Below the pieces are notes generated by a model. It had not been told where the DNA came from, made no database searches, and worked only from the letters and a program-made list of their open reading frames with translations. From positions 18,377 to 82,376 of the forward strand of contig JACPLN010000001.1 in assembly GCA_016186485.1 (NCBI GenBank): a stretch of 64,000 nt of DNA, read 5' to 3'. The translations under genes were made by a program, and so were the position numbers. Positions 56-64,000 of the stretch are shown in pieces; within the stretch, counting starts at the first letter, position 1, and the number at the start of each line of letters is the position of its first letter. Origin of the DNA: Candidatus Nealsonbacteria bacterium. GTDB lineage: Bacteria; Patescibacteriota; Minisyncoccia; Minisyncoccales; UBA6532.

Positions 56-424
56 TTACTTCTGGCATTTAAGACAAAGACGGGCAGCGGTATAAATCTC
101 AAGGCGTTTTTCCTCTATAGATTTCCCGCATTTTTCGCACTTTCCAAAGGTGCCGTTTTTTATTTTCCCCAAGGCAAGATCAATATCTTTAAGCCTTGTT
201 TCAAGGTTATACTCAATCGGAAGATTGGTGGCATATGTTTCCACTTCGTCTGCGGCGTCTTCCAAAGATTCGCTCCCTATTCCCCCATTGTGTTTTGGGA
301 AACGAGTATCCCAATCTCCTTTTAGCTTAGGATCCTCGGTGGCAAATTCTTTGAGGCGATCCGCAACATCGGCCCTTTCCTTTTCTAGTTTCCCTTTGAT
401 TTCTTGAATAGTTTTTTTATCCAT
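56..424 (-). CDS. DksA/TraR-family C4 zinc-finger protein
   Basis: C-terminal CEKC...CLKC four-Cys finger after an acidic helical region; start moved to ATG at 424 (MDKKTIQEI) within ORF 56..490. Confidence 0.7.
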   Translation of the reverse strand: MDKKTIQEIKGKLEKERADVADRLKEFATEDPKLKGDWDTRFPKHNGGIGSESLEDAADEVETYATNLPIEYNLETRLKDIDLALGKIKNGTFGKCEKCGKSIEEKRLEIYTAARLCLKCQK

Positions 425-634
425 AGTTTTGGTAATAAAAAAGAGGGTGCTGGCAGCCTCTAACATATTGTTGGGATAATAGACTCGCACCCTTCTTTCC
501 GGTGCCTTAAGCCGATTTTTGGGTAATACCCAGAATTCAGCAAAAGGACTTATAAGGTTCTGTTTCTATTTTCTCACAACAAAGAGACTGCGTCAAGGGC
601 TAAACTCATAATTTTTAAACAGTTTTTCCCCAGC

Positions 635-2056: not shown

Positions 2057-2061
2057 AAAAA

Positions 2062-4170: not shown

Positions 4171-4670
4171 GTTTTTAACAAGTATTTATTAGTATTCTTG
4201 CCTAAATCCAGAAAGCTATCCGCAACTTCTTTTAGTTTTCCCGAGGCCGATCTGCCAAACGCCGCAATTTCTACCAACGCTGGTTTTGCGTATTTTATGT
4301 ACTCAACCAACGGGAAGAAGTCCCCATCGCCCGTTATTAAAACAATAACGTCCGCGCTGTCGCTGAATTTTATTGCGTCAACGGCAATTCCGACATCCCA
4401 ATCCCCTTTCTTCAATCCCCCGGGGTAAACCTGAAGATCTTTCATTTTTACTTCAATGCCGATTCTTTTTAGCGCCTCGTAAAATCCTTTTTCCTCGCCC
4501 CCTTCCGTTTTAATGCCGTATGCCATGGCCCTGACTAAATTTCTTCCGGCAACAGCGCCTTTCAGCACTTCTTTGAAGTTAACCTTTTTGCCGTAAAGGT
4601 GTTTTGCCGAATGATAGAGATTTTGGACGTCAATAAAAACGGCAACCCTTTGCTCTTGCTTTATTGGCAT
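4167..4670 (-). CDS. NYN/LabA-like domain protein (putative RNase)
   Basis: VAVFIDVQNLYHSAK ... VLITGDGDFFPLVEY pattern typical of NYN (LabA/DUF88) domains; 4-nt overlap with the pnp start. Confidence 0.6.
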   Translation of the reverse strand: MPIKQEQRVAVFIDVQNLYHSAKHLYGKKVNFKEVLKGAVAGRNLVRAMAYGIKTEGGEEKGFYEALKRIGIEVKMKDLQVYPGGLKKGDWDVGIAVDAIKFSDSADVIVLITGDGDFFPLVEYIKYAKPALVEIAAFGRSASGKLKEVADSFLDLGKNTNKYLLKT

Positions 4671-4671
4671 T

Positions 4672-4938
4672 TTATTTCTTTAAACCTATTTTTTTAATAA
4701 TGCCGTTGTATCTCCTGGCGTTTTCTTTTTGAAGATAATCCAAAAGAGATCTTCTTTTTCCGACCATATTTAAAAGGCCTCTCTTTGAATGGAAATCCTT
4801 AGCATGCTTTTTTAAATGCAAAAGCAGCTTCTTAATTTCTTCGGTTAAGAGGGCAACCTGGACTTCGGGAGAGCCGGTGTCCGACTCGTGCAGTTTGTAT
4901 TTTTTGACGATTTTTGTTTTTTCTTCCGGCGTCAGCAT
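4672..4938 (-). CDS. rpsO: 30S ribosomal protein S15
   Basis: [38 protein letters not shown]...; start moved to ATG at 4938. Confidence 0.9.
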
Positions 4939-4996
4939 TTTTTTAAAAATAGCGATCGTTTTTATTATACTCCATAGATTATCAACCACGCAAATG

Positions 4997-5069
4997 TGCC
5001 CCCAGCAGGGCTCGAACCTGCAACCTTATCCTTAAGAGGGATCTGCTCTACCAACTGAGCTATGGGGGC
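4997..5069 (-). tRNA. tRNA-Lys(CTT)
   Basis: hand-folded cloverleaf, acceptor GCCCCCA/TGGGGGC, anticodon loop CTCTTAA, T-loop TTCGAGC; no encoded CCA. Confidence 0.85.
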
Positions 5070-5075
5070 TCTAAA

Positions 5076-5507
5076 TTAGCGGATTGTGCAGTTGAATTGG
5101 GCCCATTTGTCTGCGCCGGTAAAGCTGATGGCAAAGTCGGAAACCCCAATTGCTTTAAAAACCGTATTGACCATTATAAACGCTCCGAAAATAATCGCAA
5201 CTCCTATCACCGCGGCCGTCAATATTTTCTTACCTGTTTCCACCTGACTTGGGTTTCCGGCAGCGGTAACCAGCATAAACCCGCCGATCATCAGCATTAA
5301 AACAGCTATAGGCGTAACAATAAAATTGATAATCCAGCCCCAGACGCGGTTTATCAGCTCAAAAAGATGGCAAATATTGCAAGGGTTGCCTGCTTCTCCG
5401 CAGGGTACTAGGCCGGCAGAAAAACCGGCCAAAGGCAAAAACAAAACACCCAGCGCAAAAACCAACATTGACTTTTGAATTTTAAGCTTTAGTTTTGAGA
5501 TTTGCAT
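5076..5507 (-). CDS. signal-peptide membrane protein, TrbC/VirB2-like (T4SS-pilin-like) topology
   Basis: N-terminal signal sequence, Cys pair, then two long hydrophobic helices; resemblance to CPR pilin-like proteins is from memory only. Confidence 0.35.
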   Translation of the reverse strand: MQISKLKLKIQKSMLVFALGVLFLPLAGFSAGLVPCGEAGNPCNICHLFELINRVWGWIINFIVTPIAVLMLMIGGFMLVTAAGNPSQVETGKKILTAAVIGVAIIFGAFIMVNTVFKAIGVSDFAISFTGADKWAQFNCTIR

Positions 5508-5535
5508 TTTGAATTTTGAGTTTAGCGGTAGCGCC

Positions 5536-5613
5536 TGGTGCCCCCGGAAGGACTTGAACCCTCACAAACCTAGTTCCGAAGACTAGTGCTCTATCCGATT
5601 GAGCTACGGGGGC
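5536..5613 (-). tRNA. tRNA-Arg(TCG), CCA encoded
   Basis: acceptor GCCCCCG/CGGGGGC, anticodon loop CTTCGGA, T-loop TTCAAGT, 3' ACCA. Confidence 0.85.
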
Positions 5614-6042
5614 TAATATTCTTAAACCAACCAAATTGTCTGGCTGTTTTTTTTCTGTGACAGTTAGCGCATCTCACATCACATTTTTTACTTCTTGTTC
5701 AATTTTTTGTATAGGGTATCGCCCCGTTATCAATAATGAGACCTCTTTTAGTTTATTTCCTCTATGGTCAAATTCTAAAACAGTAGTATCTTTTTCACCA
5801 CAATCCACGCACGGGTGTTTTAGTAAAAAATCTCGAATAAAACTCCGTATTTTTAATCTATTATTTGCATTCCTCTTTCTAGTTTTTTCTAAATAGTATG
5901 TTCTATTATTGTAATAATGGTTTCTTATCAGTTCCCTAGTGCACTTTTTGCACTGGTATTGTCGCAACCCCAAAGCTTTAATTTTAAAACTAAATTGATT
6001 TAGGCCTTTTTCAATTTTACATCTTGTACACCTTTTCGTCAT
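5591..6042 (-). pseudogene. HNH endonuclease, frame broken in an A6 run (ORF track 5674..6042 is the 5' part)
   Basis: CVDCGEKDTTVLEFDH...GNK in frame. The essential KCDVRCANCHRKKT motif is encoded just downstream in the adjacent frame, and restoring A7 at 5684-5689 joins them. Confidence 0.6.
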
Positions 6043-6201
6043 CTATTAAATAATACGTCGTATTGTCCAATTATACCACGGGGGCCCCATACAGACCCTT
6101 TTCAATTTTCTGTCGGGCCCGGCCCGTAAGGGCATAGGGCGCATAACTTATTCTACCACAACAGTTGAAAAATTCAATTTTAAGGGTAAGATAAATTAAA
6201 C

Positions 6202-7662
6202 ATGATTATTCCAAAAGAAATAAAAGATATAATTTTGAAGCTGAATAAGGCGGGATTTGAAGCTTACGTTGTCGGAGGCTGCGTTCGCGATATTTTAACA
6301 GGAGTGGATCCAAAAGATTGGGATGTGACAACAAGCGCAAAGCCGGAAGAATTAAGAAAGCTGTTTCCCAAAAGTTTTTACGAAAATAAATTCTATACCG
6401 TAACCGTTCAAACCAACAGCAAGAACCCTGTCTTAAAAGAAATTGAGGTTACCACTTTCAGATCAGAGACAAAGTACACAGACAAAAGGCATCCCGACGA
6501 AATAAAGCCAGCTAAAAACCTTAAAGAAGACCTGGCAAGAAGGGACTTTACGGTAAATGCGCTTGCCCTTCGGCTTCGCTCGGGGCAAGCTCCTGAAATT
6601 ATTGATCATTTTGGGGGACGGAAAGATCTTGAAGATAAGCTTATTAGGGCGGTAGGAAATCCGGCGGAAAGATTTGACGAAGACGCTTTAAGGTTAATGA
6701 GAGCAGTAAGATTTGCCGCAACCCTGGGTTTTGCAATTGAAAACAAGACTCTTGAGGCGATCAGGGAAAACGCCGAAACCCTCAGCTTCATTTCAAAAGA
6801 AAGAATCAGGGATGAGTTTTTGAAGATAGCAATGTCGGAGAATGCGGCCCAAGGCCTTGAATTATTAAGAGAAAACGGCTTGTTAAAGTTTATTATTCCT
6901 GAACTTGAGGAAGGATACGGAGTCGGCCAAAACAAGCACCATATTTACGACTGTTATACCCACAACCTTCTTTCTTTTAAATACGCAGCTCAAAAAGGCT
7001 TTAACCAACAAGTGAGGATAGCCGCCCTGCTTCACGATGTTGCCAAACCCAGGGTTAAGCGCGGAAACGGCCCGAACTCCACTTTTTATAACCATGAAGT
7101 TGTCGGTGCAAAAATGGCGGCCCAAATACTGGATAGGCTTCGTTTCTCCAAAAAAGACGCTGAAAAGATCGTTAAGCTTGTTAGATATCACCTTTTTTAC
7201 TATAATGTGGACGAGGTTACAGAATCTTCAGTAAGGCGTTTGGTAAGGAATGTCGGGCCGGAAAATATGGAAGAATTGCTCCAGGTAAGAATGTGCGACC
7301 GCATTGGTTCGGGGGTGCCAAAGGCCGAACCATATAAGCTTCGCCATTTAAAGTATGTTATTGATAAGGTTTCTCAAGATCCTATTTCCGTAAAAATGCT
7401 GAAAGTGAGCGGTAACGACATAATGAAGCTATTGAAGATAAAACCCGGGCCAAAGATCGGCAAAATCCTGGATATTTTATTAGGGAAAGTATTAGACGAT
7501 CCAAAGAATAACACCAAAGCGTTTCTTGAGAAACAACTAAAAGATTTAAGCGAATTATCAGAAAAAGAGCTGGAAAAGTTGGCAAACGAGGCCAAAGATA
7601 AGAGGCAGAAACTTGAAATAAAGAGAGATAATATGACAAAGAGCAAATATTGGGTAACGTAA
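6202..7662 (+). CDS. cca: CCA-adding tRNA nucleotidyltransferase with HD domain
   Basis: GGCVRD...DWD pol-beta nucleotidyltransferase head, RDFTVNA, then an HD region (LLHDVAKP). Confidence 0.85.
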   Translation: MIIPKEIKDIILKLNKAGFEAYVVGGCVRDILTGVDPKDWDVTTSAKPEELRKLFPKSFYENKFYTVTVQTNSKNPVLKEIEVTTFRSETKYTDKRHPDEIKPAKNLKEDLARRDFTVNALALRLRSGQAPEIIDHFGGRKDLEDKLIRAVGNPAERFDEDALRLMRAVRFAATLGFAIENKTLEAIRENAETLSFISKERIRDEFLKIAMSENAAQGLELLRENGLLKFIIPELEEGYGVGQNKHHIYDCYTHNLLSFKYAAQKGFNQQVRIAALLHDVAKPRVKRGNGPNSTFYNHEVVGAKMAAQILDRLRFSKKDAEKIVKLVRYHLFYYNVDEVTESSVRRLVRNVGPENMEELLQVRMCDRIGSGVPKAEPYKLRHLKYVIDKVSQDPISVKMLKVSGNDIMKLLKIKPGPKIGKILDILLGKVLDDPKNNTKAFLEKQLKDLSELSEKELEKLANEAKDKRQKLEIKRDNMTKSKYWVT

Positions 7663-7667
7663 AATTT

Positions 7668-7958
7668 ATGGAATTATCAATAATAATTGCCGCGTTCGGC
7701 GGCGGAGCGGTCAGGGGAATGGTCGGTTTTATTAAGCACCAGTTCGCCTATAAGAACGTGGGTTTTAATGTTCCCTATTTTTTGGCAATGATTTTTCTTT
7801 CCGGCACGGTTGGCGTTATGGTGGCGGCCGCATTTAACGTTAATGCCGTTTTCGCCTTTATTATTGGGTATGCCGGAGGCGACTTTCTGGAGAACGTCTA
7901 TAAGATTATTGCAAAAAAGCCCGAGATTTACCTTCCTTTTAAAAACATCAAGCCTTAG
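7668..7958 (+). CDS. small integral membrane protein (hypothetical)
   Basis: three hydrophobic segments; start moved to ATG 7668. Confidence 0.45.
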   Translation: MELSIIIAAFGGGAVRGMVGFIKHQFAYKNVGFNVPYFLAMIFLSGTVGVMVAAAFNVNAVFAFIIGYAGGDFLENVYKIIAKKPEIYLPFKNIKP

Positions 7959-7969
7959 GGCAGCTGTTT

Positions 7970-8002
7970 GGGCTATTGCTTCCTCGGAGGAAGCAATAGC
8001 CC
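7970..8002. repeat. REP palindrome copy 1
   Basis: GGGCTATTGCTTCCTCGGAGGAAGCAATAGCCC, perfect 16-bp arms around one central base. Confidence 0.9.
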
Positions 8003-10771: not shown

Positions 10772-11500
10772 ATGTTTCAAGACACATCTTTTGGCAAGGA
10801 AATAATCTGGGGCGAGTACCAGAAGAACCTCATTTTGCCCAAGCTCCAGAAACTTTTGAATTTAAAAAAAGGAGATAAAGTTTTGGATTTGGGATGCGGA
10901 GCGGGTTATTTTACCCGCCAGTTCGCCAAGTCGGGGGCTAATATTATCGGAGTTGACGTATCAAAAGAGATTATTGATATTGCTCGGCGGAAATCACCCA
11001 AGAATGTAAGATATTATACGGCTTCAGCCGATAAGTTGCCTTTTCCAAATAAAACCATTGATAAGATAATCGTTATTCTGGCCCTTCAGAATATGGAGAA
11101 TGTTTTCAAGGTTTTTAAAGAATGCCGCAGAGTATTAAAGCCGAAAGGCAAGCTGTTTATAGTAATGAATCATCCGGCTTTTCGCATACCCGGCGCTTCC
11201 AGTTGGGGGTGGGATCAAAATAATAAAATTCAATATCGCAGAATTGACAAATATCTTTCAAACCTTAAGGTAGAAATAAAGATGCATCCCGGGAAAGATT
11301 CTCAATCTTACACATTTTCTTTTCACAGGCCCGTACAGGCCTATTTCAACGCAATTTTTAAAAATAACTTTTGCGTAAGCCGCCTTGAAGAGTGGGTTTC
11401 TTTTAAAAAGAGCCAGCCGGGCCCCAGAGCAAAGGCAGAGGATTTGGCCAGATCCCAAATCCCTCTTTTTCTATATTTGGAAGCCATAAAAATGGATTAA
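10772..11500 (+). CDS. class I SAM-dependent methyltransferase
   Basis: motif I VLDLGCGAGYFT, followed by DKIIVILALQN. Confidence 0.8.
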   Translation: MFQDTSFGKEIIWGEYQKNLILPKLQKLLNLKKGDKVLDLGCGAGYFTRQFAKSGANIIGVDVSKEIIDIARRKSPKNVRYYTASADKLPFPNKTIDKIIVILALQNMENVFKVFKECRRVLKPKGKLFIVMNHPAFRIPGASSWGWDQNNKIQYRRIDKYLSNLKVEIKMHPGKDSQSYTFSFHRPVQAYFNAIFKNNFCVSRLEEWVSFKKSQPGPRAKAEDLARSQIPLFLYLEAIKMD

Positions 11501-11663: not shown

Positions 11664-11696
11664 GGGCTATTGCTTCCTCGGAGGAAGCAATAGCCC
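11664..11696. repeat. REP palindrome copy 2
   Basis: identical to copy 1; 27 nt upstream of TTGACA-17-TAAAAA. Confidence 0.9.
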
Positions 11697-11770: not shown

Positions 11771-12887
11771 TTGAACATCCAGATATTGGCTCTTCAGATA
11801 CCCGGTTTTGACGGAGAAATCAAGGGTTTTGACCCCAATTCTATTTTCTGGCTCTTTATTTTTTATGTACTCCCGTTATTGATTATTTTCAAAGTGCCGC
11901 TTTTTCTAATGAATTATAACGCCAAGAAATTTATTGAGTCTCTGCAAAAAGATAGGGACTTTGCAAAAGCAGAGCTTATTAAAGAGCTAAAATCTCAAGG
12001 TTTTGAGAATAACGGCCAAAGAATAGATGAGATGCTGGAATACTTTACAATTAATCCGGTTGACCTTGATCCCAAAGGGATAGTTAATAAAATAGATTAC
12101 TTGCATTCTCTTCAAGGACAGAGAATGAGGCAAGAAATAGAAAGATTTGTCCCCGGCGCAAAAAAGGCTGAACGCCAAAACATTGAAAGTCTTTTGGAAA
12201 TTGCCGCCACCATTAATGTTTTGTTCAAAGTCGTCCGGCATTTATACCTGACGGCAAAAAAGTCAAAAAGCATAATTTGGGCAATGCAAACATTAATGCT
12301 TAAGCCCTTTATTGAAGAAATCATTGAGGCTCTAAAAGCTGCGATTCCGGCAATAAAGAGGGGGAATCCGATTGGCGATAGCATAGGTCCTATGGTAGTA
12401 GCCGGATTTATGAAAGAGAGAATTCCAGTGGCGCTAGACACGGTTTATTCTGTTGGCAAAGGGGGCGGAGACAGGAAATTAATATTCGTGAAAGCAGAGG
12501 GTCCGGGGCAGTACGGTGGGAAGAATTGGAGACGCGGTGGAAAGATTGGCAGAAGGGTGCAACCCGCATATTATTGTTACGATTGATGCCGGTCTGAAGC
12601 TTGAAGGAGAAGATTCCGGAATTGTGCAAGAGGGTGTTGGGACCGCAATCGGAGGCATTGGAGTTGAACGCTATAAAATCGAAGAAGTGGCGACAGCCAA
12701 TGACATTCCTCTTTACGCTATTATTGTATGGCAGTCCATTAAAGAAGCGATTTCAGAAATGACCGAAGAAATAAGAGGCAGTATTCCCGAGGTTTGCAGT
12801 AGGCTGGACAGGCTGGTGAATGAAAAAACCAAGCCCGGCAACACGGTCTTGATCGTTGGCGTAGGAAATACAATTGGAGTTGAGTAG
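11771..12887 (+). pseudogene. membrane-anchored ~370-aa protein split into two ORFs (11771..12586 and 12516..12887); possibly archaeal DUF1512-like
   Basis: the second ORF continues the first in frame +1. Removing one G from GGGG at 12505-12508 gives ...KAEGPGSTVGRIGDAVERLAEG.... The DUF1512 assignment is from memory. Confidence 0.5.
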
Positions 12888-29117: not shown

Positions 29118-29207
29118 GGGATCAAGCTTGTTTTTCTCCCTATCTATGTTATTCTATGGCTAGAAAATTAAACAGCCTAAACCTCGCTTTTGGGGCATGG
29201 CATAAAA

Positions 29208-29304
29208 CCCATCGAAGATAAAGAGCTCCTCGTTCAGAGCACTCTTCGATGGGTCATAGCTCGAAAGGGCTATGGGTGGCGCAAGCCATCGCTGGCGGGG
29301 AGCT
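29208..29304 (+). ncRNA. candidate structured RNA / cis-regulatory leader (unclassified)
   Basis: 11-bp stem 29208-29218/29243-29253; 8-bp hairpin with GAAA loop (29255-29274); 6-bp hairpin with GCAA loop (29275-29290); possible pseudoknot AGCTCC (29224-29229) with GGAGCT (29299-29304). Confidence 0.3.
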
Positions 29305-35941: not shown

Positions 35942-36033
35942 AAGTGGGGTTTAAGTCCGGAATCCGGCAATGGTTCTAACTTAAACTACCCACAAAACAG
36001 GTTCTAACATCGTCCACCCAATTACCCCATTTT

Positions 36034-36066
36034 GGGCTTATTGCTTCCTCCGAGGAAGCAATGGCC
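36034..36066. repeat. REP palindrome copy 3 (subfamily with one bulged base)
   Basis: GGGCTTATTGCTTCCTCCGAGGAAGCAATGGCC. Confidence 0.85.
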
Positions 36067-36124
36067 TTAAAATAAAGGAAGCACCGTAATGTTCTTCCTC
36101 TCAGAGTAGAATTCAGCACATGAA

Positions 36125-37212: not shown

Positions 37213-37301
37213 TTTCCCAAAACAGGTTCCCCTCCTTCGCTAAAGCTTCGGACGGACACAGCCCGCCCGCATCAGCTATGCTGAAAGCATTGCGGGCGGC
37301 T

Positions 37302-37369
37302 AACATCGTCCCGTAGACGACCCCATTTTGGGCTTATTGCTTCCTCCGAGGAAGCAATGGCCCTATTTT
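37302..37369 (+). repeat. 68-nt repeat containing REP copy 4 (core 37330-37363)
   Basis: AACATCGTCCCGTAGACGACCCCATTTTGGGCTTATTGCTTCCTCCGAGGAAGCAATGGCCCTATTTT, identical to 37901-37968. Confidence 0.9.
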
Positions 37370-37394
37370 CGGAGTAGAATGTACAAATGAAAAC

Positions 37395-37850: not shown

Positions 37851-37900
37851 TTCGGAGACTGTTACCCGGGTTTAAGTTAGATAATTATTTTATGTCAAGA

Positions 37901-37968
37901 AACATCGTCCCGTAGACGACCCCATTTTGGGCTTATTGCTTCCTCCGAGGAAGCAATGGCCCTATTTT
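37901..37968 (+). repeat. 68-nt repeat containing REP copy 5 (core 37929-37962)
   Basis: identical to 37302-37369; followed by a T run. Confidence 0.9.
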
Positions 37969-38011
37969 TTTGGAACAAATGGCTGTAAGGCATTGAACTA
38001 TTGCGATCGGC

Positions 38012-53579: not shown

Positions 53580-54068
53580 ATGACAGACGGTAAAAATAAA
53601 AACTATATATCTCTTCAGAACGCAACAAAACTCTGCAATTATTCGCAGGAGTATTTAAGCTTGAGGGCCAGGCAGGGAAAACTGAAGGCGATAAAGCTTG
53701 GCAGGAATTGGGTGACAAAAAAAGAATGGCTGGAGGGGTATATAAAGACAGCCGAATCTTACAAAGAGTGGCTGAACGGAATGATAAATTTCCGCCAGCC
53801 GCCCGCAAACCTTCCGATAGGAGAACTAAAGGTTTTTAAGGACTCAAAGTCTTTTACGGTTTTTCTTCCGGCGCTTGCTTTTATTTCCGCCGCAGTTTTG
53901 ATTTTTGCCGGAACTGTTTTCGGAAAATCCGTCCTTCAACATGTTTATTCAGACATTTTGCCGCATCTTTCAAGCGGATTGGCTGTTGCCAACGCAAAAG
54001 AGGCGTTTTCCGGGACAAAAGAGCTTTTAGCTGAATATATTAAATGGGTCTCCGGCTTAATATATTAA
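53580..54068 (+). CDS. bitopic protein with N-terminal excisionase-like HTH and one TM
   Basis: YISLQNATKLCNYSQEYLSLRARQGKLKAIKLGRNWVTKKEWLEGYI then TM FTVFLPALAFISAAVLIFAGTVF; N-domain about 57% identical to that of the giant protein at 58642. Confidence 0.55.
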   Translation: MTDGKNKNYISLQNATKLCNYSQEYLSLRARQGKLKAIKLGRNWVTKKEWLEGYIKTAESYKEWLNGMINFRQPPANLPIGELKVFKDSKSFTVFLPALAFISAAVLIFAGTVFGKSVLQHVYSDILPHLSSGLAVANAKEAFSGTKELLAEYIKWVSGLIY

Positions 54069-54697
54069 GCAAAGCAACAGATGTCTTGCTGGACATATTG
54101 TTTCCAAGGATTTGTTTTGGCTGCGGAAGAGAAGGCAAATACGTCTGCGATAAATGCGAGATATTTTTAATTGAGGTTGAGAATAACATCCCGGGCCTAG
54201 TTAGCGTTTGGGAGTACGAGGGCCTGATGGAGAAATTGATTTGGAAGATAAAATTTGATAGAAAATACCATATTTTAGAAGAGTTGGTAGAAAAAGCTTT
54301 GCATAGAATTGAATTAAGTCTTCCGGAAAGCGCATATATCACTTATGTGCCAATGCGAAAGAATAGAGAAAAAGAGCGCGGCTTTAATCAAGCCGCGCTT
54401 ATCGCCCGCCGCTTGGGCCAATTGCTTCCTCGGAGGAAGCAACAGCCCTTTCGGGTTTTGCCTATGCTGAAAAAGGTAATAGATAATAGGTCGCAGGTGG
54501 GATTGAACCCCAAGGAAAGAATAGAAAACGTTAGAGACGCTTTTGCTTTTGAGGGATTATTTGTGCCCGAGAACGTTTTGTTGGTTGACGACGTTTATAC
54601 CACTGGAGCTACCGCTAAAGAATGTGTTAGAGTGTTAAAGAAAGCCGGCGTAAAGAAGGTCTGGATATTTACTCTGGCAAGGAAACTTCAATGTTAA
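54044..54697 (+). CDS. comF: ComF-family competence protein (PRTase fold)
   Basis: N-terminal CFGCG...CDKC, RGFNQA, VLLVDDVYTTGATA. Confidence 0.85.
   Translation: MGLRLNILSKATDVLLDILFPRICFGCGREGKYVCDKCEIFLIEVENNIPGLVSVWEYEGLMEKLIWKIKFDRKYHILEELVEKALHRIELSLPESAYITYVPMRKNREKERGFNQAALIARRLGQLLPRRKQQPFRVLPMLKKVIDNRSQVGLNPKERIENVRDAFAFEGLFVPENVLLVDDVYTTGATAKECVRVLKKAGVKKVWIFTLARKLQC
54415..54448. repeat. REP palindrome copy 6 (diverged), inside the comF reading frame
   Basis: GGGCCAATTGCTTCCTCGGAGGAAGCAACAGCCC, translated as GQLLPRRKQQP. Confidence 0.8.
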
Positions 54698-55569
54698 CCC
54701 AAAAGGAAAGACAAAATTATAGATTGATAAGCGATAAAGACTATCCAAAATTGTTGAAGAAAATTGGCAGCGATGCCCCGAAACAACTTTATTACAAGGG
54801 GAGTTGGGATGAGGGAATTTTTAAAAATTGTTTGGCGGTGGTAGGATCAAGACGTTTAACAAGTTACGGCAAGCAAGTTGCAGAAAGATTGGTGACTGAA
54901 GCGGCGGCAGCTGGCATCACCATAGTTTCCGGATTTATGTACGGAGGCGACGCCGTTGCCCATAAGGCCGCCCTTCGGGCAGGCGGCAGAACAGTTGCAG
55001 TGATGCCCTGCGGGATAGACTTAATACATCCCGAATACCAGGAAGATTTATACAATGAAATTTTAGAGAATAAAAGCCTGATTATTTCAGAGTATGAAGG
55101 GGATATGTTGCCCACAAATTGGACTTATCCCAGAAGGAACAGGATAGTGGCGGGTTTAAGCAAAGCAGTTTTAGTGGTTGAGGCCGGGCTAAAAAGCGGC
55201 TCCTTGATTACCGCTAATTTTGCTAAAAAATTTGGCAGAAAGGTTTTTGCAGTTCCCGGCCCCATAACCAGCGAAGTCTCCAAAGGGACTTTACAGCTAA
55301 TTAAAAATGGGGCTGAAATGGCAATATCTAGTCAAGATATATTGGGACATTATAGAATGAAGGGCCAGGCTGTTTTGTGGCCAAAAGAAATTGGAGGCGA
55401 TGGGCTTGAGGGTAAAATCTTAGAGCGGTTGAGGCTAGAACCAATGGGGGCGGATGACTTAGCCAGGGCATTTGGCATATCTGCCTCGGAGTTAGGGGTG
55501 ACATTATCAATGATGGAGCTTCGGGGATTGGTGCGTCGCGAAGACACAAAATACCACCCCAATTATTAA
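54691..55569 (+). CDS. dprA: DNA processing protein DprA
   Basis: VVGSRRLTSYG, SGFMYGGDAVAHKAAL, MPCGID, C-terminal wHTH. Confidence 0.9.
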   Translation: MLTQKERQNYRLISDKDYPKLLKKIGSDAPKQLYYKGSWDEGIFKNCLAVVGSRRLTSYGKQVAERLVTEAAAAGITIVSGFMYGGDAVAHKAALRAGGRTVAVMPCGIDLIHPEYQEDLYNEILENKSLIISEYEGDMLPTNWTYPRRNRIVAGLSKAVLVVEAGLKSGSLITANFAKKFGRKVFAVPGPITSEVSKGTLQLIKNGAEMAISSQDILGHYRMKGQAVLWPKEIGGDGLEGKILERLRLEPMGADDLARAFGISASELGVTLSMMELRGLVRREDTKYHPNY

Positions 55570-55579
55570 AATCTAGCTC

Positions 55580-55613
55580 GGGCTCATTGCTTCCTCCGAG
55601 GAAGCAATAGCCC
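55580..55613. repeat. REP palindrome copy 7 (left flank of RAYT)
   Basis: GGGCTCATTGCTTCCTCCGAGGAAGCAATAGCCC followed by TCAAAAC. Confidence 0.9.
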
Positions 55614-55622
55614 TCAAAACTT

Positions 55623-56345
55623 ATGAACGAAAAGAAACGATTTGAAGTAGGAAAAATTTATCATATTTATAATCGGGGAGTTGCGAAGTGTGATATATAT
55701 AGAATGGAGGCTGATGATTGGCGATTCCTCCAAGGGCTTTGTCTATTTAATGATAAGAATAGTGCTGCTAATATACTCTGGCAATTAGAAAAAACGAGAG
55801 GGCGGCTTACTTTAAATGTTTTGAAAAAATACATAAAAGACCAGAAATATGAACGAAAACCATTGGTTCGGATTTTAGCTTATTGCGCAATGCCAAATCA
55901 TTTTCATCTCTTGCTTGAAGAAAGAGAGGAAGGCGGCATCACAAAGTTTATGCAAAAACTCGGAGCAGGCTATGCTCGTTATTTTAATAATAAATATAAT
56001 AGAGTGGGGAGTTTATTCCAAGGAAGATTTAAAGCGGTGCCGGTAGAAAACGAACGTTATTTGCAGTATCTGCTCGTATATATTAATGTGATCAATCCTA
56101 GTCAATTGGCAGAACCTCGTTTTAAGGAGGAGGGCATAAGGGATATGGCAAGCGTTTTACGCTTTGTCGAAGAATATCCTTTTGGTACCCACCAAGAATA
56201 TATTGGTAAGCGAGGATCAATAATAATAGAAAAAGGTGTTCTGGCAGAATTGTTACCCACTCCAGAAATTTATCGAGAATTGGCAGAAGATATTTTAAGA
56301 GAAAAGAGACACATGGAAATTCAACATCTTTGGCTAGAAGAATAG
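55623..56345 (+). CDS. REP-associated tyrosine transposase (RAYT; IS200/IS605-like Y1 HUH enzyme)
   Basis: YHIYNRGV, HUH motif MPNHFHLLLEE, GSLFQGRFKAVPVE, Tyr motif YLLVYINVINP; flanked by REPs. Confidence 0.8.
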   Translation: MNEKKRFEVGKIYHIYNRGVAKCDIYRMEADDWRFLQGLCLFNDKNSAANILWQLEKTRGRLTLNVLKKYIKDQKYERKPLVRILAYCAMPNHFHLLLEEREEGGITKFMQKLGAGYARYFNNKYNRVGSLFQGRFKAVPVENERYLQYLLVYINVINPSQLAEPRFKEEGIRDMASVLRFVEEYPFGTHQEYIGKRGSIIIEKGVLAELLPTPEIYRELAEDILREKRHMEIQHLWLEE

Positions 56346-56378
56346 GGCTCGTTGCTTCCTCCGAGGAAGCAATAGCCC
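56345..56378. repeat. REP palindrome copy 8 (right flank of RAYT)
   Basis: GGGCTCGTTGCTTCCTCCGAGGAAGCAATAGCCC followed by TCAAAAT; its first base is the last base of the RAYT stop codon. Confidence 0.9.
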
Positions 56379-56416
56379 TCAAAATTTATCTGTATTTATT
56401 TGCGCTTTAAGGGAGT

Positions 56417-57949
56417 ATGTTAGTTAAGGTAAAATCAGGAGCAAATAGCGGATTAGAAATGATAGGGGTTGACGTAGAGGTTAATGTGGCAAGCCGCGGC
56501 TTGCCTAGTTTTGATATTGTCGGTTTGCCGGATAAGGCAGTTGCCGAAAGCAGAGAAAGAGTAAAGACAGCTATTCAGAGTTCAAAAATGGAGTTTCCCA
56601 ACAAAAAAATAACAGTCAATCTGGCGCCGGCCGATTTTCCAAAAGAGGGCTCTTGCTACGATTTGCCAATAGCCGCTGCTATTATTTCTGCCGAGCAGGG
56701 ATGCCCGATCCCGGAAAAATCCCTATTTTTTGGTGAGTTGTCGCTGGACGGATCATTGCGCCATACCAAGGGAACGTTTCTTTTAACTCTTTTTGCCAAA
56801 GAGTCCGGTTTAAATAATGTTTTTGTGCCCAAGGATTCTGCCGCAGAAGCCAGCATTATTCGGGGAATAAATGTTTATCCTATAGAATCCCTGAAACAAC
56901 TTTTTAGGTTTTTTGAGGGCAAAGAGGCTGTGGAACCAGCTATTTATCAAAAAGAAGATTTATCCGATACGCCCCCGGAGTTTGATATGGCAGAAATTCT
57001 AGGTCAAGAGCAGGCGAAAAGAGCAATGGAGATAGCCGCAGCCGGCTCCCACAATATTTTACTGGTAGGTTCTCCCGGCACCGGCAAAACAATGCTGGCT
57101 AGGGCCCTGCCAGGGATTTTGCCGCCCCTGAACGAAGAAGAAGCTCTAGAGGTTACTAAAATTTATTCCGCGGCAGGACAGATTCCCCCCGGCGGATCTT
57201 TAATTAGAATTCCGCCATTTAGAACTCCTCACCATACAGCTTCAAGCGTAGGCTTGATTGGCGGGGGGACCAGGCCCCATCCGGGAGAAATTAGTTTGGC
57301 TCACCGCGGCGTGCTTTTTCTTGACGAATTCAACGAATTTCCTCGTTTAGCATTGGAAGCTCTTCGCCAGCCCTTGGAAGACGGCTGTCTGACAATTGCG
57401 AGATCAAAAGAAAGGGTCAGGTATCCTGCCAGATTTATGCTTGTAGCTTCGGCTAATCCTTGTCCTTGCGGCTATCTAAATCATCCTAAGAAGCAATGCC
57501 TTTGTTCTTCTCGCCAAGTAAGGAAATACCAAAAAAGAATTTCCGGACCCCTGCTGGATAGAATAGATTTGCATATAGATATTCCGCCGGTTGATGTCCG
57601 AGAACTCTCGGAAAATCAAAAGGCTTCAGAATTTTTAGAACAATCGGATGTTATTCGCCAAAGAGTCATTAAAGCCAGGCAGATTCAATACCAGAGATTT
57701 TTAGGAGATAATATTTTTACTAATTCCGAAATGAAAAACCCTCATATTAAAAAATACTGTAAATTGCCAAAAGAGGCAGAGCAAGTATTGCAGCAGGCAA
57801 GTATCAAGTTCCAGCTGTCCGCCAGGGCTTATTTGAAAATGATAAAGATTGCCAGGACCATTGCTGATTTGGAGGGGACGCCAGAGATTGGAGTTTCGCA
57901 TATAGCAGAAGCCTTGCAGTACCGTCCTAAAACAGATAAAAACGAATAA
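56417..57949 (+). CDS. comM: ComM/YifB Mg-chelatase-like AAA+ ATPase
   Basis: Lon-like N-domain, Walker A GSPGTGKTM, LFLDEFNEF, Cys cluster CPCGY...CLC. Confidence 0.9.
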   Translation: MLVKVKSGANSGLEMIGVDVEVNVASRGLPSFDIVGLPDKAVAESRERVKTAIQSSKMEFPNKKITVNLAPADFPKEGSCYDLPIAAAIISAEQGCPIPEKSLFFGELSLDGSLRHTKGTFLLTLFAKESGLNNVFVPKDSAAEASIIRGINVYPIESLKQLFRFFEGKEAVEPAIYQKEDLSDTPPEFDMAEILGQEQAKRAMEIAAAGSHNILLVGSPGTGKTMLARALPGILPPLNEEEALEVTKIYSAAGQIPPGGSLIRIPPFRTPHHTASSVGLIGGGTRPHPGEISLAHRGVLFLDEFNEFPRLALEALRQPLEDGCLTIARSKERVRYPARFMLVASANPCPCGYLNHPKKQCLCSSRQVRKYQKRISGPLLDRIDLHIDIPPVDVRELSENQKASEFLEQSDVIRQRVIKARQIQYQRFLGDNIFTNSEMKNPHIKKYCKLPKEAEQVLQQASIKFQLSARAYLKMIKIARTIADLEGTPEIGVSHIAEALQYRPKTDKNE

Positions 57950-57951
57950 AC

Positions 57952-57984
57952 GGGCTATTGCTTCCTCCGAGGAAGCAATAGCCC
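57952..57984. repeat. REP palindrome copy 9
   Basis: GGGCTATTGCTTCCTCCGAGGAAGCAATAGCCC; fills the comM-yraN spacer. Confidence 0.9.
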
Positions 57985-57988
57985 GAAC

Positions 57989-58354
57989 ATGGGGATGAAG
58001 GAATTTAATCTTAAAACCGGTCAAACCGGAGAGAGGATTGCCAAAGAATATCTGGAGAAAAATGGGTATAAAATTTTGGAGAAAAACTACAGAAGCAAGT
58101 TTGCCGAGATTGATTTGGTTGCAAAAAAGAGGAACGAACTAATATTCGTAGAAGTAAGAACAAAGAAAGGGGAATTATTTGGCACGCCGGAAGATTCTTT
58201 AAACAAAAAGAAACTTAATAAATTATGGTGGAATGCCAAATCTTACGCCTCAAGGATCGGGTGGTCGGGACCATACAGGATAGATGCCGTTTGCGTAGTC
58301 TTAAAGCCAGACGGCGTTTTAGAGCGAATAAGCCATCACGAAAATATAATCTAA
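57989..58354 (+). CDS. yraN: YraN-family (UPF0102) endonuclease-like protein
   Basis: GERIAKEYLEKNGYKILEKNYR...EIDLVAKK...LIFVEVRTK. Confidence 0.85.
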   Translation: MGMKEFNLKTGQTGERIAKEYLEKNGYKILEKNYRSKFAEIDLVAKKRNELIFVEVRTKKGELFGTPEDSLNKKKLNKLWWNAKSYASRIGWSGPYRIDAVCVVLKPDGVLERISHHENII

Positions 58355-58641: not shown

Positions 58642-61600
58642 ATGCCAAAAAGAATGGAAAAAAAATCAGTGCCAAAGGACAGAGGCCGGCTGAAGCCCGA
58701 TCCGGCCTATGTTTCGCTGGCTGAACTAGCTAAAAACTCCCCCTACTCTCAGGAATACTTAAGCTTATTAGCAAGGCGAGGCAAATTACAGGCAAAAAAA
58801 TTTGGCAGGAATTGGTATGCCGCAAGGGAAGCTCTTGACGGATATTTAGCCCACCAGGGGCTAAATATTGTTTTACCAAAGCATCTTTTTAATGCTTCTT
58901 ACAAAGGGAAGATTACAAAACCATTTGACGCTCTTTCTTTTGAGGGACAAATTAGGAATGGAGAAGTAGAACCGAATGTAATTTTAACCCAATTCGGAGA
59001 TCCCCAAGAGCCGATAGACCTTGGGGGCACAAGAGAAAGGTGGGCAGAAAGAATAAAAGAAAAAGAACAGGTATCAGAACCAGTAAAGCCCGAAGAAAAA
59101 GCTAAAGAAGAGCTAAAATCCGAAGAAATACTCAAAATTGAACCCTATCGGATAAGGACAATGCGTAAAGATATAATGGCTTTAACTGGAGGGGGTGTGC
59201 CTAAAAAAGAATACAAGGCTCAAAAACCAGAAACAACTCCTAAGGTTGTTTCCAAAGAGCCTGTCCGCCCAGAGCAAATACCTCTTCCGATAGGGGGGGC
59301 GGCAAAGAAAATAATTCCAGAAAAAGAGGTTTTGGCCACAGAAAGAAAACAGGCTCCAGAAAAGGAAGAGACGATAAAAGAAATGCCCATAGAAGACAGG
59401 GTTTTGGATAAATTGCTTCAGGCCTTGGAAGCCAGGATTCCTCCCAGGGGGCCTTTTGAGAAATTAGCGCAGATTAATGGAGCGGCAAACCATTATTTCC
59501 GTTCCTCTTTCAAGGTTCTTGCCGTATCTGTTGTTGCTATTGTTGTAATGTTTCTTTTAATAGGAGGAGTGAGCTTTGGCAACGTTGATAAAATGATGCT
59601 CGCCGTCAACAGCTTTTTAAAGGACGCTACCACCCTTCGGGGGCATTTTGCCGGTACTCACGCAAACGAAGTTCTGCTTTTGGATAAAGAAGGCAAAATA
59701 TCAATTTACGGCCACGTTGAAACAAGGGGTCAGCTGCGCTCTTTTGTTGAACAGGGAGTGGCGCCCCTTGTCGTAGATTCCACCACGACTGTTGAAAATT
59801 TGAGCGCCGACTACCTTGATAATTTATCAAGCAAAGATTTTACCTTGGCCTTTGTAACAAAGAACGGAAATATCACCTATGAGGACGTAAAACTTGAGGG
59901 AAACGTAGAGGTGGGGAAAACTCTTGTCGTTAAGGGAGCGGCAAAACTTTTAGATAGCCTTTTTGTCTACGGCACCATAGGGACTTTCGGCGACATTATC
60001 GGAAAGGGAAACCTAACAATCGGCGGCGCGGCAAAGCTTGTTGGCCCTCTTTTGGCTCTTGGCGGCGTTGAAACCAAAGGCGCAAATCTTAATTTGGGTT
60101 CGGGCACAATTTCAACTACAAACAGAAATTTGGTGCAAAATCTCAACGCCGATATGGTGGATTCCATGAATGCCGATGACTTTACACTGGATTTCGTTAC
60201 CTCTAACGGAGCCAATACTTTCAACACTATTTCCGTTTCAGGAATTAATGTCAATAAACACTTGGCTGTATACGGAACCTTTCTATTGGGCGACGAAAGG
60301 CTGGTGGGCGCGGTGGACACGAAATATTGGGATATTAGCGCTACCGGCAACATTAACACCGAGGGGACATTAATCGTTAAGGGAAACTCTACCTTTAGGG
60401 GAGAACCCGGGGCAGCCATAGCTTCAGCCACCTCTTATATCAATCCTTCTTCAGCGCCCTCAAACACAATACTTTTAGGAGTGGCTGTTAACGGTTCAGA
60501 AAAGTTAAGGATAGACGCAGAGGGCGATCTTACTGCCCAGGGTTCAATAACCGCTTCCGGCGCCCTGACAGTCAGCGGGGCCACAACTTTTAACAGCGAC
60601 GTTACCCTGGCTTCTCCGGCAGATTTAATCCTTAACGCCGGCAGCTTAACAGTTAACGCCCTTTCGGCTCCTTCCGGCGTTTCGGCCCAAGCCACCACTA
60701 CCGGCTCTCTGGCTTCGGGCACGTATTATTACGTTGTGACCTCTCTCAACAGCAACGGCGAAACAAGCAGTTCTACCGAAGTTTCAGCGGCAGTAGACGG
60801 CTCCACCACTACGGCGGTAAATATTTCCTGGAGCTCGGTAACGAGCGCCACAAGCTATAGGGTTTACGGCAGAACGCAAGGAGCTCAAGACCGATACTGG
60901 CAAACCACCTCCGCATCTTTTAAAGATACGGGGACTGCGGGAACCGCGGCCGCGGTGCCGTCAAGCAACAGCACCGGAGGATCGGGAACTTTTTACAGCG
61001 GCCTTACGGTTTTGGGCACAACGATTTCCCGCAGCATTGTTCCCCAATCAGCCGCTTTTTACAACCTAGGTTCGCCCGGCCTCTGGTGGGACAATATATA
61101 TGTAAGCGCAATTTTAGCGACCTCAACAGTTTTCCTAGGAAACGCAACCACCACCAATATTTATCCTTCCGCAGATATTTCTTATTTTCTTGGGTCTCCC
61201 AGTTTTCGCTGGGCAAACACATATTCAGTCACCACTACTATCGGAGGCGCGGGAGGCGCAATAACAATAGACAATGACGATATCAGGGCTTCAAGCGGTC
61301 TGACTGTTTCTTCCACCGAAATTATGTTTTCTGCTTCTACGGGCAAGTTGTCAGCCACCTCCTCCCAAGATATTTATTTTGCGACAGCCGGCGCGGAAAG
61401 ATTTAGGATTGGATCCTCCGGCCAGGTTACCATTTCAGGGAACGTTGACGCTACTTCAGGTCTGGATGTGACAGGAGCCAAGCTCACTGCCACCACCACG
61501 GAAATCACCGCCACTGACGCAGCCAACGTTTTGACAATTACCCAAAGGGGTTTGGGAAGAATAGCTCTGGCAACTTCAACTTCTTCAATGACCTCCTCGG

Positions 61601-64000
61601 CTTTCCAGATTACCAACCTTGGATCCGGCAACTCATTTTTGGTTGAAGACGCAGACACAGATGCTTCGCCATTTGTCATTGACGCTTCAGGTAAAGTCGG
61701 CATTGCCTCTTCCACGCCCACAGCCGCCTTAGAGGTAGGAGGGAATATATATACCACAGGAGATATTACCCTTTCTGGGAATCTTTTGCCTTCCACTCCC
61801 AGAAATAAAGATATAGGTTCTGTTGCGGTTGACTGGCAGAATGTTTACGCCCAAAACGTTTATGCAGACAACATTTTGGCCACCACTTCCACTTTAGCCG
61901 GAACCCAGGGAGAAACCTGGACTATAAATACCGATGCTGCGTCCGACGCCACTTCAACCTTAAGGTTTTATCGGGGAACAGATGCTCCCCATGCTTTATT
62001 GGCTTGGGATGCGGGATATGATCGCTTCAGCTTTAACTTCCCATTCTTTGTAAATAACTCCGCCACCTCTACTTTTGCCGGTCCAATAGCCCAAAACTCT
62101 GGAAATATGACAATTGGGTCAGCTATAGGAAACCTCTTATTAAATCCTTATGGCGGTAACGTCGGCATCGGGACGACGACACCCTCTTCTCTGCTTGAGA
62201 TTTGGACGAGCACGGCCGGGATCAACCTTCTGGAAATCGGAACTTCCACGGCAAGCAATCTTTTCGTCGTCGATTCCTCCGGCCGTCTTGTTTTCGGCGG
62301 GGACACCAACCTCTACCGTTCCTCTGCCAACGTTCTCAAGACAGACGACGGATTTATCGCTTTCGCTTCCTCAACGATTGTTGGGGATTTCTCAGCTGGA
62401 GCTAGCGGAGTACCAACGCTTTTCGTTGACGACGGAGGCAACGTCGGCATCGCTTCTTCAACGCCGTCAGCAACCCTTTCCATACAGGGAAACGTAATCA
62501 GTTCAGGAAACTTCACTTTCTACGGTTCCGGAACAAACACATTCTCGGGCCAGATATACTTTATCCGGAGCATCCACCACCACAGGCAGAGCCTACTTCG
62601 GAGAATATATTGGCATAGGAGACAACTCTCCTGATTTTGCCTTGGAAATCGCAGCTTCAACAACCAATGGCTACTTCGCTGTTTCTGGTTATCCGGGAGG
62701 CGACGGAGACAAGTTTGTAATTAACGGTTCAGGCAACGTGGGCATTGCCTCAACCACTCCCTCCACCGCTCTATCGGTCCAGGGAAACATCTGGGGTTCG
62801 GGAGACGTCAGATTCTTTGGAACTTCTGCCACCACTACAATCAGCGGAGGCCTGATAGTCGGCACCAACACTCTCTGGGCTCCGGCAGGAGGCAACATTG
62901 GAATTGGAACCGCTGTTCCAACCTACACCTTAGATGTTTCAGGAACTGGCAGATACGCAACCTCTCTGAATGTGGCAGGAACTGCCACCACAACCGGAAC
63001 TTCGCTGGCTTTTGCAGGACTTGGCACTGTCAGCTCAACTGACAATCTCCTCTTAATGAGTAATCGGAATCTCTCAGTCACTTCCACCAACAACATCTTA
63101 TTCGGCACAGGCATTGCCGGAGCCGAACGTATGAGAATTGATTCTTCAGGCAACGTAGGCATAGGGACATTAGCCCCAGACAATCTGCTTGATATTTCTA
63201 AAGCAAACGGAGGGGCTTTGGCCGCCGACGTCTTCCTCACCATTACCCAGGCTTCAACAACCGCAGCAGCCGACCCTTATCTTGTTTTTGAAATAGGTGA
63301 AGACGCTGCGACCAGAGGCTGGAGGCTGGGAATAGACGACTCCGATTCAGACAGCTTTAAGATAGGAACAGGAGCTTTCAGCTCCAATGATATCTTAACC
63401 CTAGACACTTCAGGCAGGCTGGGTCTTGCAACCTCCACCCCCGTTTCTTTGTTATCCGTTCACGCTTCAACAACCGATTTTGCTATGACCTTGCGTCAAG
63501 CCAATGAAGCCACTTCCGGAGGACTGTTACATATATACAAGCCGGGAACAGATATACTTACGATCTTAAACAATGGCAACGTGGGAATTGCTAGTTCAAC
63601 ACCCGGCGCTGTTTTATCGGTGGGAGGGGACGTTCTTATTGGAAGCGGTTCCACAATATATGCTAAAAACCTGAGACCCGTGGCTGACAACGCAGGCAGC
63701 TTGGGTTCTTCCAGTTTGCGTTATCAGTCTGTTGAACTTGATACGGTTACCGGTTTAAGGCTTTGGAATTCTGCGGGAGACGCCAACGCCTTGGCTCAAC
63801 TGACAGGAACTAGCCTGAACTTTGGAGCAGGCGGAGGCACGGCCCTAGACACCAACCTCTACCGCTCCTCTGCCAACGTTCTCAAGACCGACGACGGATT
63901 TATCGCTTTCGCTTCCTCAACGATTGTTGGAGATTTCTCAGCTGGAGCTAGCGGAGTCCCCACGCTTTTCGTTGACGACGGAGGCAACGTCGGCATCGCT
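58642..64000 (+). CDS. giant membrane-anchored surface protein with tail-fibre-like repeats; frame changes by +1 near 62560 and the gene runs off the window
   Basis: ORF 58642..62634 (1330 aa): N-terminal HTH-like domain, Lys/Glu/Pro-rich linker, TM (VLAVSVVAIVVMFLLIGGVSF), then repeats GNVGIASSTPxxxL. Frame +1 is open from 62498 to the window end and carries the same repeats. Confidence 0.75.
62302..62454 (+). repeat. 153-nt intragenic direct repeat, copy 1
   Basis: 5 mismatches to 63848-64000. Confidence 0.9.
63848..64000 (+). repeat. 153-nt intragenic direct repeat, copy 2 (truncated by the window end)
   Basis: offset 1546 nt from copy 1. Confidence 0.9.

Follow-up and report, generated by a model that had tools for sequence, protein, structure and literature searches.

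A Y1 HUH protein gene bracketed by REP-type hairpins in Candidatus Nealsonbacteria and a probable REPtron-like system across Parcubacteria

Systems that combine repetitive extragenic palindromic (REP) sequences with a REP-associated tyrosine transposase (RAYT) have been characterised almost wholly in Proteobacteria and a few other phyla, in ordinary or large genomes. Here, we analysed a 64,000-nt stretch of DNA from Candidatus Nealsonbacteria bacterium (assembly GCA_016186485.1, contig JACPLN010000001.1, positions 18,377 to 82,376 of the forward strand; hereafter the window), which carries a gene for a Y1 HUH protein bracketed by two copies of a short imperfect palindrome. This arrangement of gene and hairpins is shared widely within the Parcubacteria group of the Candidate Phyla Radiation (CPR). 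We consider it likely that this arrangement constitutes a REPtron-like system, in which a vertically inherited, domesticated class-2 Y1 HUH endonuclease/strand-transferase acting on single-stranded DNA (ssDNA) is paired with presumably cognate REP-type hairpins. The elements at the locus are as follows:

55580-55624, plus strand: upstream flanking repeat, composed of the palindrome (55580-55613, ending 9 nt before the ATG) and the shared tail TCAAAACTTAT
55623-56345, plus strand: gene for the Y1 HUH protein, RAYT-like with a subclass 2.1-like core, 240 amino acids (aa)
56345-56389, plus strand: downstream flanking repeat, composed of the palindrome (56345-56378, beginning on the final base of the TAG stop codon) and the tail TCAAAATTTAT

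An initial annotation, made from the bare sequence, had drawn attention to this open reading frame (ORF) and to two motifs in its product, and both are present: NHFHLL at residues 92-97, with N92-H93-F94-H95 as the HUH motif, and YLLVYINVINP at residues 149-159, where Y153 of the motif YINVINP is the putative catalytic tyrosine. A profile search agreed with the assignment to the Y1 superfamily, as the Pfam family Y1_Tnp (PF01797) matched residues 75-155 with 41.8 bits (cutoff 23; E = 1.3e-10). The same scan, at E <= 1, gave no further match and neither an HTH-like nor a DnaA_C-like C-terminal domain. The protein contains an insert of ~30 aa before the HUH strand and a tail of ~80 aa with a conserved F/W-G/S-T/S-H..Y.GKR motif. 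Both the HUH and the tyrosine residues were invariant among 57 homologues, and an AlphaFold2 model built with these sequences reached a predicted local distance difference test (pLDDT) score of 87 with a helical tail. Foldseek placed this model closest to the PDB entry 4er8_A (E = 5.9e-6), followed by 2xo6, 2xm3, 2a6m and 2vjv; E. coli TnpA(REP) bound to a REP hairpin (4ER8) hence ranked ahead of the TnpA proteins of ISDra2 and IS608. Searches of PDB sequences yielded noise and very weak IS608 matches (E ~0.6) with the single sequence and no match at E <= 1 with the 57-sequence profile. Among the NCBIfam models, REP_Tyr_transpos scored 30.9 bits and the IS200 model 13 bits, both under the curated cutoffs (80 and 55, respectively), and REP_Tyr_transpos reached 28-42 bits across nine family members (the window protein and eight relatives). 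No tnpB gene accompanies the Y1 gene, whose immediate neighbours are dprA and comM. The window holds one copy of the gene, which is presumably single-copy genome-wide as well.

The flanking palindrome, GGGCTC[A/G]TTGCTTCCTCCGAGGAAGCAATAGCCC, comprises 34 nt and is bulged and imperfect. Both copies lie in the same orientation and are directly followed by TCAAAA, exactly as initially described, and together with their tails the two repeats match over 45 nt with 2 mismatches. Folded as ssDNA, the upstream repeat reached -14.3 kcal/mol (z = -5.5) with a bulged C in its 5' arm and the downstream repeat -14.2 kcal/mol (z = -5.4); both gene-flanking copies share such a bulge in the 5' arm. The 21-nt core TTGCTTCCTCCGAGGAAGCAA occurs at nine sites, 7976(-), 11670(-), 36041, 37337, 37936, 54422(-), 55587, 56352 and 57958, so that the seven additional copies that had been counted in the window were all recovered; they are spread over 50 kb, and 100 dinucleotide-preserving shuffles gave 0 core matches. 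All nine copies fold as ssDNA (-12.6 to -19.8 kcal/mol, z-scores -3.0 to -8.1), three of them are identical perfect 33-mers located up to 50 kb apart, and eight are intergenic. The copies outside the flanks are:

7970-8002, minus strand: solo REP, perfect 33-mer, intergenic, upstream of tRNA-Pro
11664-11696, minus strand: solo REP, perfect 33-mer, intergenic
36034-36067, plus strand: REP within a composite repeat of ~65 nt, in which the small hairpin TCGTC-CCGTA-GACGA precedes the REP
37330-37363, plus strand: REP within a composite repeat of ~65 nt, followed by a T-run
37929-37962, plus strand: REP within a composite repeat of ~65 nt, followed by a T-run
54415-54448, minus strand: REP-like palindrome in frame in comF, in the linker after the RGFNQ motif
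57952-57984, plus strand: solo REP, perfect 33-nt palindrome filling the comM-yraN spacer (-19.8 kcal/mol, z = -7.9)

The three composite repeats consist of AACATCGTCC..., the small hairpin, CCCCATTTT and the REP. At 35990-36075, 37290-37370 and 37890-37970 they punctuate three small ORFs (139, 141 and 127 aa), which had no Pfam match. An Rfam scan assigned no family to the hairpins, and a promoter and terminator scan revealed no enrichment over shuffled sequences and did not call the gene-flanking copies as plus-strand terminators. The orientation of the nine copies followed no consistent rule with respect to gene strand or GC skew. An exact 23-mer of the window REP had 0 matches in a metagenome scan, and with a relaxed 17-mer most hits were palindromes arising by chance on unrelated contigs; a bona fide related REP, of the type found at the locus of the closest relative (L008), was present only in Ga0307421, Ga0307422 and two other samples, on ~10 short contigs.

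Homologues of the window protein formed 4009 clusters at E <= 0.001. More than 576 loci were found in GTDB species genomes, nearly all of them from Patescibacteria/Parcubacteria and usually one per genome, the best GTDB relative being 76% identical; an exact look-up of the window protein gave no record. In every one of the first five loci examined, the Y1 gene was bracketed by matched imperfect palindromes, which had the apex TCCGA or TCCGT and a GGGC...GCCC-like foot in common and differed in their stems. At a 63% identical locus in another genomic context (L003), the downstream copy likewise begins on the stop codon. We then applied a flank test to 75 evaluable Patescibacteria loci, using 641 other ORFs of the same loci as controls. 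A gene counted as positive if each of its 150-nt flanks held a hairpin of 8 bp or more and the 15-nt centres of the two hairpins differed at no more than one position. Matched hairpins in both flanks were found for 49 of the 75 Y1 genes and for 6 of the 641 control ORFs (Fisher p ~1e-49); the former number is a minimum, as the test overlooked known positives whose stems are imperfect (L001, L012). Median distances between hairpin and gene are 20 nt on the upstream side (from the end of the hairpin to the start codon) and 3 nt on the downstream side (from the stop codon to the beginning of the hairpin). An apex of the form GT[CT][CG][GA]AC was present in 46 of 98 flank hairpins (7-mers GTCCGAC, GTTGAAC and GTCGAAC). 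Stems vary between genomes but remain self-complementary, and the apex is conserved even among proteins as little as ~35% identical. Relative to each other, the flanking hairpins are direct at 24 loci and inverted at 25; the same-orientation bracketing seen in the window is therefore not a rule of the family. The palindrome count in relatives pointed in the direction initially anticipated, with 0.70 extra copies per 10 kb outside the flanks compared to 0.019 per 10 kb for palindromes with shuffled arms (~37-fold). Moreover, hairpin distance correlated with protein distance (Mantel r = 0.34), a value reached by 0 of 2000 permutations.

Two further observations were made among these loci. At four of them (L024, L025, L067, L068), inverted hairpin doublets flank the Y1 gene, e.g. 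CTTGCCTCCGGCAAG-12 nt-CTTGCCGGAGGCAAG, which are REPIN-like (a doublet form of REP) and unlike the singlets of the window. CPR-type Y1 genes (40-42% identity) also occur on eight contigs binned as Planctomycetia, Gammaproteobacteria, Nitrospiraceae or Thermodesulfovibrionia (L033, L045, L047, L050, L053, L057, L060, L065), six of which (all but L045 and L060) carry CPR-type flanking hairpins; either mis-binning or horizontal transfer could account for them.

But, how might a single protein keep two hairpins on its own gene and scatter others nearby? We hypothesise that the Y1 protein would bind the hairpin in ssDNA, for instance on the lagging-strand template or in recombination and transformation intermediates, and that it would recognise the conserved apex (TCCGA in the window and GTCCGAC, GTTGAAC or GTCGAAC elsewhere in the family) together with stem irregularities such as the bulged C. 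Employing an HUH-bound metal and Tyr153, it would cut near the hairpin foot and rejoin the strands. Over time, the hairpin would be copied or moved to intergenic and a few in-frame intragenic sites, and the two best-matched copies would stay clamped on the gene, ~20 nt before its start and ~3 nt after its stop. Recognition through a co-inherited protein predicts the observed combination of a conserved apex with varying stems. There is precedent for the proposed chemistry, as the TnpA(REP) proteins of E. coli, S. maltophilia and Marinomonas cleave their cognate REP ssDNA in vitro, with loop and bulge bases as determinants (PMC8266576). A double-stranded palindromic operator for a dimeric regulator was also considered as the principal explanation and rejected, since the stems vary yet stay self-complementary and only the apex is conserved.

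The proposed system corresponds in architecture and presumed function to REPtrons, i.e. RAYT/TnpA(REP) genes with REPs, REPINs or bacterial interspersed mosaic elements (BIMEs), which correspond to groups 2 and 3 of Bertels and to subclasses 2.2 and 2.5 of Quentin. Both combine a Y1 HUH fold with the same short hairpin on either side of the gene, and in both cases the hairpin is also dispersed in multiple, mostly intergenic copies. Low copy number of the gene, vertical inheritance, lineage-specific hairpins, bulged gene-flanking copies and occasional in-frame copies are common to both as well (see also PMC3733652, from which in-frame intragenic REPs are known for other systems). In contrast to REPtrons, it is the apex that is conserved here and not a GT[AG]G foot, the window contains singlets instead of REPIN/BIME doublets at a moderate density of about 1 per 7-14 kb, and the host belongs to the CPR, a genome type in which tnpA(Y1) was thought to be rare (PMC6006769). 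Of the REP/RAYT arrangement of REPIN type that had been suggested initially, the REP/RAYT part stood, and the REPIN part did not hold for the window, given nine singlets and no doublets. RAYT likeness is backed by the top fold match and the profile preference, but the protein is not a canonical RAYT.

The nearest described group is subclass 2.1, which equals Bertels group 1 and TIRYT and has been reported without REPs (PMC6006769). Its signature comprises NH[VYF]H, FQ/W[EQ]GRFK and Y[IV]xLNP, and the window protein resembles it ('TIRtron') in NHFH, LFQGRFK, a '..NP' tyrosine motif and a length of 240 aa (vs ~238 aa); a WSS-like tail motif is common to both. This likeness was judged from motifs, length and the core alignment. 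The window core is 44% identical over 85 aa (E = 9e-19) to WP_130108377, encoded on plasmid pl1 of Iodobacter fluviatilis, a protein of 234 aa with the textbook 2.1 signature (NHVH, WE, YIELNP). In this alignment, YINV-INP of the window faces YIE-LNP, indicating a one-residue insertion in the window clade, and a sister CPR clade (34-45% identity) is canonical, with NH[FY]H, YIHLNP and the WSS tail motif. TIRYT genes are reported to be bounded by non-palindromic terminal inverted repeats (TIRs) with the consensus GGGGWSAS, and some of their flanking repeats are self-complementary and moderately repeated (PMC3733652). The Iodobacter comparator fits the consensus, having 26-nt TIRs (L210, 1291-1316 and 2136-2161) that contain GGGGTCAG; 127-nt direct repeats, 92% identical, lie outside these TIRs. 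Unlike subclass 2.1, the window gene is flanked by dispersed self-complementary hairpins without GGGGWSAS, and its product has an N-terminal insert and a tail in which Pfam detects neither DnaA_C-like nor HTH domains (Bac_DnaA_C, HTH_23 or HTH_28). We propose a domesticated Y1 nuclease that is subclass 2.1-like and CPR-wide, with REP hairpins conserved at the apex and devoid of GTAG. Rickettsia palindromic elements are a further parallel, since they likewise place short palindromes in frame within genes of a reduced genome (here comF, and in L001 comM and yraN), but they measure ~100-150 bp instead of 33 nt and come without a Y1 gene.

Several points weigh against a REPtron-like system. The REP_Tyr_transpos model (NF047646) scores the window protein far under its cutoff (30.9 vs 80 bits), and an hhalign comparison of the family profile with E. 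coli RayT covered the HUH region only (probability 1.8%); because only the HUH strand was aligned, we do not claim membership in group 2. RAYTs measure ~150-165 aa vs 240 aa for the window protein, and the canonical tyrosine motif Y-x3-N-P is extended by one residue to Y-I-N-V-[IL]-N-P (Y-x4-NP) in the window clade. At the hairpins, the foot is GGGC...GCCC without a 5' GT[AG]G, the neighbouring bases are not conserved, and none of the nine window copies forms an inverted REPIN/BIME doublet as in a canonical RAYT system; hairpins of relatives lack the GTAG foot as well. The closest described group, subclass 2.1, was reported to be free of REPs (PMC6006769). Dispersal is moderate: with ~10 kb of flank sampled on each side, extra copies were found in 19 of 49 loci and in none of the remaining 30, at a median of 2.6 kb from the Y1 gene. 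The Mantel correlation could reflect shared genome phylogeny alone, and metagenome-assembled genomes (MAGs) could collapse or break at identical repeats and thereby hide extra gene copies. Finally, we infer the binding, the cleavage chemistry, the strand specificity and the dissemination of hairpins by the Y1 protein.

Alternatively, the locus might be an autonomous IS200/IS605-like insertion sequence of low copy number, whose ends are the flanking hairpins; the whole cassette would transpose, and the solo hairpins would be by-products or miniature derivatives. IS200/IS605 TnpA proteins (IS608, ISDra2) indeed share the HUH/Y1 fold, hairpins just inside both ends and the recognition of ssDNA hairpins. 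The two flanks in the window have the same orientation and are closest to each other, like the subterminal hairpins of left and right ends, and the bracketed cassette occupies different contexts in different genomes (HisK/AspRS, pilus genes/ligA, dprA/comM). Within the comF-dprA-comM-yraN cluster alone it is found in at least three slots, which implies movement over evolutionary time. However, we consider this explanation improbable. The IS200/IS605 assignment of the initial annotation held for the Y1 superfamily and the fold but not beyond, as the protein has Y..NP instead of the Y...Q motif, is 240 aa and not ~150 aa long (~90 aa longer), scores 13 bits on the IS200 model (cutoff 55) and has no tnpB. 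The orientation of the flanking hairpins across the family (24 direct, 25 inverted) is unlike that of IS200 ends. Excision of IS608 and ISDra2 is seamless, and solo 33-nt hairpins are not expected from an IS200-type excision of this sort. IS200 copies are on average 99.4% identical (PMC6006769), whereas no near-identical Y1 copies, let alone multiple identical full elements, were seen in the 64-kb window and the MAGs examined: the same-genome paralogues of three two-copy MAGs were 70.7%, 71.1% and 45.8% identical, and many Y1 loci are found mid-contig, on long unique contigs that reach 733 kb. In one of two 71%-identical paralogues (L015, 10001-10720, MAG JAQBTT01; the second copy is L014), an in-frame stop was noted, which may indicate a pseudogene or a sequencing error. 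Furthermore, the order comF-dprA-Y1-comM-yraN has been kept in three Nealsonbacteria lineages (the window and two others), where the Y1 protein (70-77% identity) is as diverged as its housekeeping neighbours DprA (67-77%), ComM (72-81%), ComF (62-65%) and YraN (58-65%). The suggestion that the gene is domesticated is in line with this conserved synteny and housekeeping-like conservation.

The neighbourhood is itself of interest. As initially proposed, the Y1 gene lies between dprA and comM in a block of competence genes, identified by their Pfam families:

54044-54697, plus strand: comF-like gene (zinc ribbon and phosphoribosyltransferase (PRTase) domains), Pfam
54691-55569, plus strand: dprA, Pfam
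56417-57949, plus strand: comM, Pfam and synteny
57989-58354, plus strand: yraN/UPF0102 nuclease-like gene, Pfam and synteny

Within the close clade (46-76% identity), 13-14 genomes have the Y1 cassette next to this cluster, be it upstream of comF, inside the comF-dprA or the dprA-comM interval, or in a position followed by yraN-comM; the cassette therefore moved locally while staying with the cluster. Among immediate neighbours, ComF-type PRTase, DprA, ComM and YraN recur most often, and TPR, ABC-transporter and pilin families each recur ~3 times. Neighbours differ widely beyond the close clade, and 180 Pfam families were counted among 135 neighbours. A seemingly recurrent neighbour cluster of large surface proteins was rejected as a low-complexity artefact. 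Overall, the context reads as inherited synteny combined with mobility of the cassette over long time scales.

Palindromes are also found within the genes of the block, and the 33-nt REP unit corresponds to 11 codons. In an alignment of ComF proteins, the window and one relative (L001) are 6 aa longer at the comF palindrome, which falls in a variable linker after RGFNQ. Another relative (L006) has a palindrome of its own type at the same position with no net change in length, and the closest relative (L008) has none. This pattern suggests either concerted replacement or repeated targeting of the linker. L001 additionally carries palindromes of the family type in frame in comM (11307-11337, in an inter-domain linker) and near the C-terminus of yraN (12778-12808, +5 aa).

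These findings raise the question of whether nuclease and hairpins belong to the machinery of natural transformation. If so, the module would, in one large Parcubacteria clade, be coupled to transformation and would mark, trim or resolve REP-tagged ssDNA during uptake or recombination together with ComF, DprA, ComM and YraN, and selection would maintain the linkage. ComF, DprA, ComM and YraN all act on ssDNA or recombination intermediates, and their recurrence next to the Y1 gene, with comF and dprA adjoining it in three or four gene orders, as well as the REP-like palindromes inside comF of three genomes (in L001 also in comM and yraN) would fit such a role. Yet the linkage is limited to one clade, about half of which, along with an entire distant CPR clade, has unrelated neighbours; at two loci (L010, L017) the Y1 gene lies between genes for a 'big protein' and a TPR protein, without any competence genes. 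Inherited synteny and local cassette moves explain the data, and we regard a coupling to transformation as quite unlikely. If it were true, REP hairpins would serve in cis as sites of DNA acquisition, in organisms that are believed to rely on scavenged DNA.

Very unlikely, in our view, is that the hairpins are RNA or transcription elements (terminators, mRNA stabilisers or translational operators) whose dispersal is unrelated to the Y1 protein: their positions (9 nt before the ATG, median 20; on the stop codon, median +3) would suit translational control and 3'-end protection, T-runs follow the copies at 37337 and 37936, the copy at 57951-57985 scores as a minus-strand terminator, and E. coli REPs are reported to act as regulators in 3' untranslated regions, but the association is specific to the Y1 gene (49/75 vs 6/641 other ORFs), the gene-flanking copies are followed by TCAAAA and not by a T-run and were not called as plus-strand terminators, the apex is conserved down to 35% protein identity while the stems vary, no Rfam family matches, and the predicted fold of the protein is that of a hairpin-ssDNA nuclease. 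Such RNA roles would not exclude a REPtron-like system.

Why should an ultra-small genome keep a REPtron-like module at all? CPR genomes of this kind normally shed non-essential DNA, and retention of Y1/REP modules under strong genome reduction argues for a benefit to the host. A survey of tnpA(Y1) genes found them enriched in large genomes, with the CPR outside its sample (PMC6006769). Our search of the open-access literature yielded no paper linking RAYT, REP or IS200 with CPR/Patescibacteria, in agreement with the initial judgement that the arrangement is undescribed in these organisms. The family offers a comparative series of protein/hairpin pairs to learn how Y1 nucleases read hairpins without a GTAG guide, and it provides a testable link of the module to competence genes. 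It also flags 33-nt (11-codon) palindromes that lie in frame inside comF, comM and yraN.

Four minor observations concern other parts of the window. A full-length match to the Rfam family LOOT (RF03000; 92.7 bits, gathering threshold 46.4) is located at 29174-29290 on the plus strand, in an intergenic position beside small ORFs. Around ~6000-8000, gene orientation switches from minus (56-6042) to plus (from 6202 onwards) and GC skew from negative to positive, a pattern that a replication origin or some other boundary in strand bias could produce; a dnaA gene was not seen beside it. An ORF of 1330 aa at 58642-62634 encodes a low-complexity protein rich in Thr, Ser and Gly. The GC content rises to 0.50 in the last 4 kb (60001-64000), compared to ~0.42 elsewhere in the window.

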